A stretch of DNA of 19,302 nucleotides from the IMG/VR virus record IMGVR_UViG_2671180673_000002. One strand, 5' to 3'. The stretch is from a virus (Duplodnaviria > Heunggongvirae > Uroviricota > Caudoviricetes). Positions 15,001-18,000 of the stretch are shown piece after piece; positions within the stretch are counted from its first letter, which is position 1, and each line of letters begins with the position of its first letter. The position numbers were made by a program.

Positions 15001-18000
15001 CCACCGAACTGAAGTGCAATTCGGTGATCGAGTTCACTGTCACAGAGGTCAACCACACGACCACAGAGACGGCACTGCCCGGCGTCCCTGAGCCAGATAT
15101 GACGCTTGAGGGAAACACGTGCACTGCCACTGACACGACGCTGTTCACCCTTCAGAATATTCACCCGTCGGGTATTCAGTGTTTTGATTCTGCTCTGGAG
15201 TGTACGAAGCTCAGCCATGTAAAATCCCCGTCATATGGCAATCAGTAAAGGAAATAAATATGTCATCGAAAAACCGTACCCGCAGAACCACAACCCGCAA
15301 TATCCGTTTCCCCAATCACATGATTGAACAGATCAACATCGCCCTTGAGCATAAAGGGTCCGGTAACTTTTCAGCGTGGGTTATTGAAGCCTGCAGGAGA
15401 AGGCTGGCAACAGATGCAACGCATCTGCGCCCGGCCAGCATGACAAATAACGAGAAATGAACGTTCGGTTACAGGAGCAGGTACCCACTGTCCTCCAACA
15501 ATATTTCATCTTCATATCCGACGGAACAATACTTACCCTGCCGGGATGTACAGAATAACAACAGAGTGATAATTAATTTCTGATGAAATAATCAGTGTGC
15601 AGAAGGACTAAAGATAAACGTTTTCTTCACGCCTTTACACGGCCTGTCCTTCTCAAATCGCCATTTTGCCATCGCCTTTACAACCTGCTCATCAAACAGA
15701 TGGTGCGGCTCTGAACGAATAAACTCAATTCGGGTGACAGTACCATCAGCACCAATATCAAACCTCACATCAACCCGTCCCTTTATATAATTTGCCGCTG
15801 CATAGGCCGGATATTGTGGTAATGCCTTAACCAACTGTCGGGGCATATCTGTTTTATGTTGCGTACAGCCCATAACCAGAGAAGACAACAAAATAATTAA
15901 CGGAAGATTTCTTTTCATTTTCATTCCCCGCACAGATAAGAATAAGTCTTATTCTAACAATGCCGCCCTGTCGGTCATCAATCCTCTGCTTAATGGCAAC
16001 GACAATTATCCGACTTAAATCACAAATCAGACACATGACATAACAGGGCTTGCGAGGTAACACATCGTCCTGTTTCTTCCACCATCGCACCGGACTGGCG
16101 ACTATGAGGGGACAACGCCGCGCTCCGTTAACGCGGTAAACCCCGGTGTGTATCGTTTTTGATTATCCCCGCACACTCGCGCAGAGGAGTCTCCCTGTCG
16201 GGCTGCGGTCTCTGTTAATGAGGGAATACAGCGACGATACGGCGCATCAGCAAAACTTAGTTCAGGCACTGAGTGCGGATATAGTCCTGTGCCCCTTCCA
16301 GCTGCTTCTGCATTGTCATCAACCGTTCTCTGAGGATGAAATAATCCCGTTCAGCGGTGTCTGCCAGTCGGGGGCCGGTTGCATTATCCACGCCGGAGGT
16401 GCCGGTGGCTTCACGCACGGTACCGGAGCAGGTGGCGTTGATCCGCAGGCGCTTACGACCAGCGGCAACATCAGCACGCAGAGTTTCATTTTCAGCTCTC
16501 GCATCGGCTAATTCCCTCGAGTATCTGGCATCAAGTTCAGCGACATCACGCTGGCGTATCTGCATATCAGTAATTGTCGCGTTCGCCAGTTTCAGCTCAC
16601 TGACTTTTTTATCGCGCTGCGCTTTGTAGGTGATGGCGTTATCGCGGTAATGATTCAGCCCCAGACTAAGCACACCACAGGCTACCAGCAGGACAATAAT
16701 CACCACACACAGAACACGGTTCATATCACCACCAACGGATTGCCCAGACCAGAACAGCAATGGCCACAATACGAATGGCAAATGCCATTGCCCGAATAAG
16801 TTCAGCACTCATCTTTTTAAAGTTCACGATTTCAGCGCAATGACCAGTTTTGCCAGCCCATACAGCATCGGAGACACAGCAATACCAACAGCCACCCACT
16901 TAATAGCAAAAGCCAGCGCTCTGCTGATGTCATCAGTCACTGTCACCCCAGCAGCCCCGACGAAGACAACATCACCCAGGCGAGGGACAGAAAAAGAGCA
17001 ACCAGCATTAGTGAAAATGAAATACCGACAATCACACACAGGACCTTTGCCGGCGTTATGAGTTTGTCTGACATAGCTACCCCTTAATTGCCACAATTAA
17101 CTGGGATACTACCCATAAAAAAGGGATGCTCCAGACCAGCAAAAATTTCCAGTTTGGTAATTGACTAATCATGAGTCGCAACTCCCTAATCAGTTTGCTA
17201 AAATCAATCAAGGCAGCCTCCCATAGCTTACTGCCATAAAAACAAAACCCCGCTTGCTGCCAACAAACGGGGTTTTTACTTTTATTCACTTACATTTTGC
17301 CAGTTCGCAGGATTTCGTGTTATCCGTCCGCCTTGGCCAACGTCATTTATTAGCAAAATATTCTGCTTATCTGTCGATTCCCCAGCACGCCAGCGCGCTC
17401 TCCTGGTCACGACGGGATACCTGACCGTAACAGTTATTTGAGCGAATACGGCAGTCCCTGCCACCGTCCTTAATCCACCAGCGAATCGCCTCACACGCTC
17501 CCCTGCGATCACCTGCATTAATTCGTTTATAAAACGTCGACGGAAAACACTTACCGGGGCCAATGTTGTACGGACAGAATGACGCGATCCCCGCTTTCTG
17601 GGGTTCACTCAATGGCACTCTGATGTTTTTCTCCACCCATGCCAGCGCCTTATCACGCTCAATGGCGTTAACCCGGTCGCATTTTTCCTTCGACAACTTC
17701 ATGCCCGGAACGACAGGTTTGCCATCCACCAGGATGGCACCGCGGCAGATGGTCCAGATACCCGCGCCATCACGGTATGCCGTGGTGTGGTTACCTTCCT
17801 TTTCATCCAGAAACTGGTCGAGAATGTCAGGCGCAGGCGCACCAGCGGCAATCAGCGCCAGAACGGCAGCCGACAGGCCGTATCTGATTTTTGCGTTCAT
17901 GGATATTTATCAGGATTTATCGGTTTCTGCCCACGGACAGGTTTATCTGTTCCGGTCAGTGACTTAAGGTTGTGATTCCGGAGGAGTCTTCAGAGAACCA

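Follow-up and report, generated by a model that had tools for sequence, protein, structure and literature searches.

A conserved lysozyme-linked terminator and a candidate antisense RNA at a mosaic junction in the lysis operon of a lambdoid prophage

Why does the late operon of a lambdoid prophage carry a strong terminator hairpin immediately after its lysozyme gene, and could the same hairpin end a second, short RNA made from the opposite strand? The question arises from a 19,302-nucleotide (nt) stretch of caudoviral DNA, IMG/VR record IMGVR_UViG_2671180673_000002 (the window), in which positions 15000-19302 form the lysis region of a lambdoid, Shiga toxin (Stx)-phage-like prophage that is read on the minus, or late, strand. 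On this strand the order of transcription is the holin gene S, a YdfR-like open reading frame (ORF), the lysozyme gene R, a non-coding stretch with the hairpin, a cassette of four small hydrophobic ORFs (P1 to P4), the spanin genes Rz and Rz1, and bor. The initial annotation of the locus had proposed a short plus-strand RNA that starts at an extended -10 promoter and stops at a bidirectional terminator between R and the peptide genes. From the sequence comparisons presented here, the element is best classed as a candidate phage cis-antisense RNA attached to a conserved terminator at a mosaic junction, outside the sar, Sok, AsxR and AgvB families by sequence. The explanation that accounts best for the whole locus, an R-linked terminator combined with a plus-strand antisense RNA that silences the first ORF of the cassette, has in our estimate a probability of roughly 45%.

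The hairpin lies at 17244..17276, where the initial annotation had placed it together with its T-run; a terminator scan and RNA folding both confirmed it, and it is the strongest terminator-like structure of the region. On the minus strand (17276..17244), the scan reported 15 pairs (six of them G-C) with the core CCCCG...CGGGG and a 3-nt loop, GGC, followed by the tail GTTTTTATGG, also written UUUUGUUUUU, at 17234..17243. The late-strand RNA folds with -23.8 kcal/mol (z = -5.7), and none of 200 shuffled sequences folded as well. Because this is a G+C-rich stem-loop followed directly by a U-rich tract, we predict intrinsic termination here, strong for late-strand transcripts and weaker in the opposite direction. 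Among 83 unique sequences with this hairpin, the stem is almost invariant (entropy 0.01-0.05) and the loop is free to vary (0.63). In plus-strand RNA, UUUUUACUUUUAUU comes after the hairpin, and the U-rich tail UUUUUACUUUU is both present and conserved. The plus-strand U-rich tract, TTTTTACTTTTATTCACT (17273..17290), which on the late strand is the block at spacer positions 76-92, has an entropy of 0.06, against 0.64 for the distal late-strand T-tract, at which homology among relatives stops. Conservation of the U-tract fits a plus-strand role as well, though the block also stays with R when the type of terminator changes.

To which of its neighbours does the terminator belong? With window positions 17077-17400 as the query, 2,026 of 5,426 complete E. 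coli genomes gave a match, the whole query being present in only 704. Most matches span query positions 159/162-324, equivalent to 17235/17238-17400 of the window, and thus comprise the 3' end of R, the spacer of about 90 nt and the hairpin. Homology breaks directly after the late-strand T-run, and the cassette beyond is mosaic. We assign the terminator to the R side, since about 2,000 E. coli genomes keep the hairpin together with R and the break comes right after its T-run; the 3' end of R is the start of the conserved module that holds it. We also compared the R-to-Rz content of 80 IMG/VR loci chosen with the R protein, which has 598 relatives in that database. Measured from the R stop codon to the start of Rz, the intervals form at least eight classes, including 299, 336/337, 436/439, 497 and 643 nt, the last being that of the window, together with about 1,000 and 1,400 nt; some classes add an ant-like gene or a gene of 231 amino acids (aa) to the peptides. 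Every locus that retains downstream sequence has a terminator 90-125 nt after R. In most of them this is the hairpin described here (type A); in those with ant it is another one, GGCACCGTAATGGTGCC-TTTGTCATTT (type B), swapped in between AAGTGAATAAA and GT. The presence of type B at the same place in ant-bearing relatives indicates that a terminator is the norm for this R family. A terminator in the middle of the late operon had at first been regarded as unusual; with type A or type B after R wherever downstream sequence is retained, it is instead the rule for this family. As a separate observation, the carriers of type B with an ant-like or 231-aa gene are L057, L002, L067, L077, L083 and Sakai Sp10 (L086), and the ant-like gene has an antisense promoter-like site, TTGCCG-17-CATATT, within its first codons, which is reminiscent of sar of phage P22.

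Beyond Escherichia, the usual arrangement is a direct overlap between the R homologue and Rz, or a single small ORF between the two. In the K-12 prophage Qin, rrrQ overlaps rzpQ, with neither terminator nor peptides, which makes K-12 transcriptomics uninformative for this locus. We interpret the stretch 17366..16725 as an insertion into an ancestral R-Rz junction, in which the terminator appears as the fixed, R-proximal part and the peptide cassette as the mosaic part. The suggestion that the cassette was acquired as a separate module thus holds for the mosaic peptides, but not for the terminator, which travels with R. Q-modified late transcription is expected to read through a terminator in this position, as established for lambdoid phages.

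The second component is the promoter-like site. The extended -10 element TGcTAAAAT was confirmed on the plus strand at exactly 17196-17204, oriented toward the hairpin, with 43 nt between the end of the -10 and the core stem. The predicted sigma-70 promoter (17176..17204) consists of a -35 element, TCGCAA, at 17176-17181, a 17-nt spacer that includes the extended TG at 17196-17197, and the -10 hexamer TAAAAT at 17199-17204; TGn precedes a hexamer with five of six matches, including the A at position 2 and the T at position 6, and on these grounds an extended -10 promoter is predicted. We scored both strands of the window (38,238 positions) with an approximate sigma-70 matrix of our own, and the site reached 10.9, the second best of all positions (top 0.01%). 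It is the sole TGNTAWAAT in the window; as 0.56 such motifs would be expected anywhere in it, the presence of the motif alone is not significant. In a control, antisense sites scoring at least 10.9 were found within -45..+60 of 0.75% of 669 ORF starts, and sites scoring at least 9.3 at 4.3%.

What would an RNA from this site cover? The RNA had been described as antisense to the region between R and peptide A. That region is not empty intergenic sequence: between the hairpin and the 43-aa peptide it holds a further ORF, P1 (17077..17211, minus strand), and the predicted promoter is antisense to its first codons. P1 encodes 44 aa from a TTG start at 17211 or 31 aa from an ATG at 17172, with the Shine-Dalgarno (SD) sequences GGGAGG at 17222-17217 and AGGGAG at 17185-17180, respectively. 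Both lengths occur among public records; the 44-aa form matches PHROG 6632 over residues 1-43 and is E2348C_1413 in the annotation of enteropathogenic E. coli (EPEC). From the spacing of promoter and hairpin, which sets both of its predicted ends, we expect a cis-antisense RNA of about 75 nt (17211..17285, plus strand). The transcript of some 80 nt originally proposed is therefore retained at nearly that length, with the difference that it would lie over the SD and TTG start of P1. Its predicted fold has a 5' hairpin, GGCAG/CUGCC (17212-17216 / 17231-17235), an A-rich linker and the terminator hairpin. The loop of the 5' hairpin presents an anti-SD sequence, CCUCCC (17217-17222; RNA nucleotides 7-12), which pairs exactly with the SD GGGAGG at 17222-17217, and the RNA adjoins the TTG start, so that the arrangement depends on use of the TTG. 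A predicted promoter on the opposite strand within the 5' part of P1 and a predicted RNA that covers the ribosome-binding site (RBS) together give the geometry of a cis-antisense RNA of the sar/Sok type. That a plus-strand antisense RNA is made here seems to us close to an even chance; that it has a regulatory role is less likely.

The comparison of cassette heads is the strongest argument for the antisense RNA. For each cassette class we scored the best anti-late-strand promoter-like site in the 200 nt below the hairpin. The window and locus L068 have TCGCAA-17-TGcTAAAAT, with 43 nt from the -10 end to the stem and a score of 10.9. The one-peptide class (e.g. UTI89) has TCGAAT-17-TGcTAAAAT at 47 nt, scoring 11.9; cassettes in which a P3-type peptide comes first have TAGTCA-18-TATACT at 44 nt, scoring 9.3; and the Sakai Sp4 class has TGGACA-18-TATACT at 70 nt, scoring 10.9. 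In all four classes this best site is directed at the hairpin, and the distances are similar. The Sakai Sp4 site lies in a non-coding stretch, as a short insertion breaks the frame to leave an 8-aa upstream ORF (uORF), and the annotated peptide starts further downstream. The predicted RNAs all share one design, namely a C/U-rich anti-SD segment at the 5' end, a 5-bp hairpin, an A-rich linker and the terminator, and the anti-SD segment of each is complementary to the first SD after the hairpin. The stems of the small hairpin are constant among relatives and the loops variable. No such site was found beside the terminator in the type B, ant-bearing loci. Homology links the two P1-type classes with each other, and likewise the two TATACT classes, and the comparison consequently supplies at most two independent observations.

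Based on these observations, we propose the following model, in which the motifs, the folds, their conservation and the mosaic boundary are observed, and from which we infer the production, ends and action of the RNA. The hairpin would serve as the terminator and 3'-end structure of the conserved S-R module, where this meets the mosaic cassette, stopping RNA polymerase that lacks Q modification and stabilising S-R transcripts. Q-modified polymerase would pass the hairpin into P1-P4, Rz and Rz1, as expected from lambdoid biology. A constitutive extended -10 promoter within the first codons of P1 would fire toward the hairpin, with transcription starting at about 17211, and the resulting transcript, about 75 nt long, would terminate at this hairpin read in the reverse direction. 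This RNA would then pair with the leader, SD and start of P1, leading to a block of translation or to an RNase III-sensitive duplex at the junction of R and the cassette. As an outcome, the hydrophobic peptides may be kept silent in the lysogen, when late transcription is low, or may be delayed during lytic growth. The silencing logic resembles that of the sar RNA of P22 or of hok/sok.

The principal rival to this model, to which we assign somewhat less than an even chance, is that there is a terminator and nothing more: a late-strand terminator and 3'-end stabiliser of the S-R module at a moron-type junction, with the promoter motif a by-product of the A/T-rich, conserved N-terminal codons of P1. 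The points that favour it overlap with those that weigh against the antisense RNA. On the plus strand two G.U pairs of the stem become A.C mismatches, and the fold is reduced to -15.3 kcal/mol (z = -4.2); the simple terminator scan made its call on the minus strand and none on the plus strand for this hairpin. The rare changes in the stem are one-sided (U-G to U-A, G-C to G-U and U-A to U-G), such that pairing survives in late-strand RNA and plus-strand RNA gains mismatches; as pairing is preserved on the late strand only, selection acts at least on the late-strand hairpin. The description of the terminator as bidirectional remains plausible in an asymmetric form, since hairpin and U-tract are present on the plus strand, but the structure is weaker there and was not called by the scan. 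The -35 element is weak, with three of six matches. In addition, the -10 and TG are the reverse complement of the codons D-F-S-K in the conserved N-terminus of P1, (I/F)DFSKLIRE, and because of this overlap coding alone could explain their conservation. The 26 nt conserved across the P1 classes also code for DFSKLIRE, and the differences are one synonymous and two conservative, as coding constraint predicts. TG and -10 are invariant in 124 instances of P1-type cassettes, which contain just five distinct variants of the promoter segment, a within-class diversity too low for a test of selection on the promoter. The two promoter types seen among the cassette heads may be distant homologues rather than independent inventions, and one TGNTAWAAT in a window of this size is unsurprising.

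Published transcript data also count on the side of the terminator alone. The peak list from cross-linking and cDNA analysis with Hfq (Hfq-CRAC) in E. coli O157 Sakai shows nothing between R and Rz, either in Sp4 (type A) or in Sp10 (type B). In EPEC E2348/69, whose prophage PP6 carries the same locus at about 98% identity, the small RNA (sRNA) tables from Hfq RIL-seq, in which interacting RNAs are ligated and sequenced, have no entry for E2348C_1412-1416, and the part of the interaction table available to us lists no chimera partner for these genes. Both methods detect Hfq-bound RNA only; they argue against an abundant Hfq-bound sRNA at this locus, and an Hfq-independent cis-antisense RNA is outside their reach. 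Against a terminator alone stand the placing of the promoter-like site in the top 0.01% of scores, aimed at the hairpin from 43 nt away, and the occurrence of different strong sites at the same distance in other cassette heads, one of them in non-coding sequence. Antisense sites of this strength are also rare at ORF starts, as the control showed, and the plus-strand U-tract is strongly conserved.

A less probable alternative starts from the spacer between the R stop codon and the terminator (17277..17366, minus strand), which contains three conserved blocks. Their entropies across the 83 unique sequences are 0.05 (17366-17353), 0.11 (17326-17307) and 0.06 (17291-17275), compared with 0.53 at third codon positions of R; the sequence between blocks 1 and 2 varies freely and the stretch before block 3 moderately. 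These blocks and the terminator could form an sRNA from the 3' untranslated region (UTR) of R, processed or independently transcribed on the late strand, in which case the plus-strand motif would be irrelevant. The far greater conservation of the blocks than of R third codon positions, the optimisation of the hairpin for the late strand and a small GGAU/AUCC hairpin that accepts only wobble-compatible changes on that strand are in its favour. RNAalifold on 52 unique sequences found no two-sided covariation in the spacer on either strand, and for blocks 17366-17353 and 17326-17307 neither promoter, covariation nor Rfam match explains the conservation. Of the possible late-strand promoters for an independent sRNA, the best candidate upstream of the hairpin, TGgCAAAAT, loses its final T in relatives. 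A 3'UTR-derived sRNA would be a typical client of Hfq, yet there is no entry in Hfq-CRAC or RIL-seq, and late genes are nearly silent in the EPEC lysogen (baseMean 0.4-1.9). We consider such an sRNA improbable.

Equally improbable is a module akin to type I toxin-antitoxin systems, in which P1 or the whole cassette would be a membrane toxin and the plus-strand RNA its antitoxin in lysogens, in the manner of hok/mok/sok: the ORFs are indeed small and hydrophobic, the predicted RNA covers the first SD and start, an upstream start or uORF could act as mok does, and the OhsC antitoxin model gives a weak match that the terminator drives. That match, however, is on the opposite strand and reaches 21.6 bits where the cut-off is 50, the terminator and the first SD are only about 20-25 nt apart with no conserved late-strand promoter between them (the sole late-strand site there, TTGGCA-16-TGtTTTTAT inside the hairpin, scoring 9.3, is without the -11 A and is missing from the other cassette classes), the location of the ORFs within the lysis operon, packed against Rz, suggests a lysis-related role, and the peptides have no Pfam family and only PHROG families without an assigned function.

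How does the predicted RNA of our preferred model compare with known systems? The sar RNA of P22 is a short phage antisense RNA that starts in an operon's downstream gene, from a promoter within the 5' part of that gene; it is complementary to the gene's RBS and ends in the intercistronic region. Relative to P1, the predicted RNA has the same geometry as sar in the arc-ant operon. There is no homology in sequence or structure, and the target of sar is the antirepressor gene ant rather than a tiny membrane-peptide ORF in a lysis operon; moreover, sar has been demonstrated experimentally, whereas the RNA described here is predicted. According to a review, sar inhibits anti-repression (PMC5415839). 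With type I loci such as hok/mok/sok, the locus shares a small hydrophobic ORF and a short antisense RNA over the RBS of an upstream or overlapping frame; unlike them, it has no separate toxin promoter that we could find and no homology to Hok or to the Sok model, and its ORFs belong to a Q-dependent lysis operon. The terminator resembles those at moron boundaries of lambdoid late operons in being a strong hairpin with a U-tract exactly at a homology breakpoint in a Q-antiterminated operon. It differs from them in that it precedes the inserted genes and travels with the upstream lysozyme gene, and in that its A-tract and U-tract could serve both strands.

A further comparison is with the convergent prophage sRNAs at the pR' moron site (AsxR, AgvB and the EcOnc family), which are 51-60 nt long, are encoded on the anti-late strand at mosaic junctions of lambdoid prophages, and combine a conserved 3' terminator half with a variable 5' end (PMC4104026). 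The predicted RNAs of the different cassette heads likewise share their 3' hairpin and differ in the 5' 30 nt. Unlike these sRNAs, they lie at the R/Rz junction and not downstream of pR', match neither the AgvB nor the AsxR model of Rfam and have no Hfq-CRAC peak; and rather than serving as a sponge, the RNA would be a cis-acting one with full complementarity to its target. When the coordinates of AsxR, AgvB and the EcOnc peaks were set against the Sakai annotation, none fell in the R-Rz interval, and we rejected them as the same RNA. The Pas sRNAs of EPEC were likewise rejected as the same locus: PasA lies beside the esterase gene, on the upstream side of the holin gene; PasB is in PP6 but some 18 kb further downstream; and PasC and PasD are both in other prophages. 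A full-text literature search with the hairpin and promoter sequences retrieved no paper in which they are printed.

Searched against Rfam at gathering thresholds, the whole window contains no family, and with E values up to 10 there was no plus-strand match, the AgvB and AsxR models included. Permissive thresholds gave OhsC (the best low-threshold match), PyrR and the rnk leader, all on the minus strand and driven by the terminator, and we take them as chance. A different sRNA is probably represented elsewhere in the window. EcOnc10, 11 and 12 are among the strongest Hfq-CRAC peaks of Sakai, and by comparison with the Sakai annotation EcOnc11 lies on the anti-late strand just downstream of Rz. 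In the window, the plus-strand segment at about 16135-16183, just 3' of the Rz stop codon, is 96% identical to the Sakai Sp10 region with EcOnc11 (a peak of Tree et al., 2014), and it is probably a real sRNA or 3'-UTR site here as well. It is about 1 kb from the R/P1 junction and, like the convergent sRNAs at moron junctions, provides a precedent in favour of the antisense RNA.

The remaining peptides of the cassette are P2 (17074..16943, 43 aa), P3 (16940..16824, 38 aa, GTG start) and P4 (16812..16726, 28 aa, leading into Rz), all on the minus strand. P1 to P4 are tightly packed: the gaps measure 2 to 11 nt, and the row continues into Rz. P2-P4 match PHROG 4906, 1115, 4493 and 3246, and no function is assigned to these PHROG families or to 6632; a Pfam search of the cassette peptides gave no family, and their public names are merely "hypothetical" or "membrane protein". 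Relatives hold one to four of these peptides in varying, mosaic combinations. A 70-aa ORF at 17289..17077 (minus strand), annotated in ON470597 as "TPR_REGION domain-containing protein", crosses the hairpin, and its upstream part is absent from relatives; it is probably an over-extended gene call for P1, for which we prefer the TTG or ATG start.

The other genes of the region are also on the minus strand: holin S (18612..18319), the YdfR-like ORF (18314..17964), R (17367..17900; an rrrQ-type phage lysozyme of 177 aa, labelled lysozyme R in near-identical phages), Rz (16257..16724, the downstream limit of the inserted stretch), Rz1 (16504..16319, embedded in Rz) and bor (15933..15592). Positions 16700-17500 are 98% identical to partial phage genomes such as vB_EcoS-569R3, and the wider region 16266-19255 is about 98% identical to PP6 of EPEC E2348/69. 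Relative to PP6, the bor-containing segment 15470-16066 is an insertion with flanks 96-99% identical on both sides, and a strong promoter-like site, TGnTAGAAT at 15956 (minus strand), lies immediately upstream of bor. The best sigma-70-like score of the window belongs to TTAACA-18-TGnTAACAT at 14679 on the plus, anti-late strand, near the end of an HNH endonuclease gene. Ambiguous bases (N) occur at 442, 448-450, 478, 499, 517 and 18299, the last of which produces an X in the YdfR-like ORF.

What does this locus mean for the prophages that carry it? Should the RNA not be real, the value for annotation remains, as the terminator is a fixed part of the lysozyme module that marks a recombination junction, and the 70-aa ORF is probably wrong. 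A bolder extension, which we regard as unlikely, is that the window is one example of a wider family: prophage antisense RNAs, about 75-100 nt long and so far unannotated, at the lysozyme/Rz junction of hundreds to thousands of E. coli genomes, with swappable anti-SD heads matched to the first peptide gene and one shared R terminator used in reverse, that would gate the peptides as a safety lock in the lysogen, in the way of a type I antitoxin, or as a device for the timing of lysis. If the RNA at this locus is real, it would open a route to four peptide families without assigned function, all of them tiny membrane peptides encoded between lysozyme and spanin genes. It would also add a point of control by RNA to the lysis cassette carried by a very common E. 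coli prophage class, which includes relatives of Stx phages, and it is the lysis cassette that sets the timing of cell burst and of phage and toxin release.

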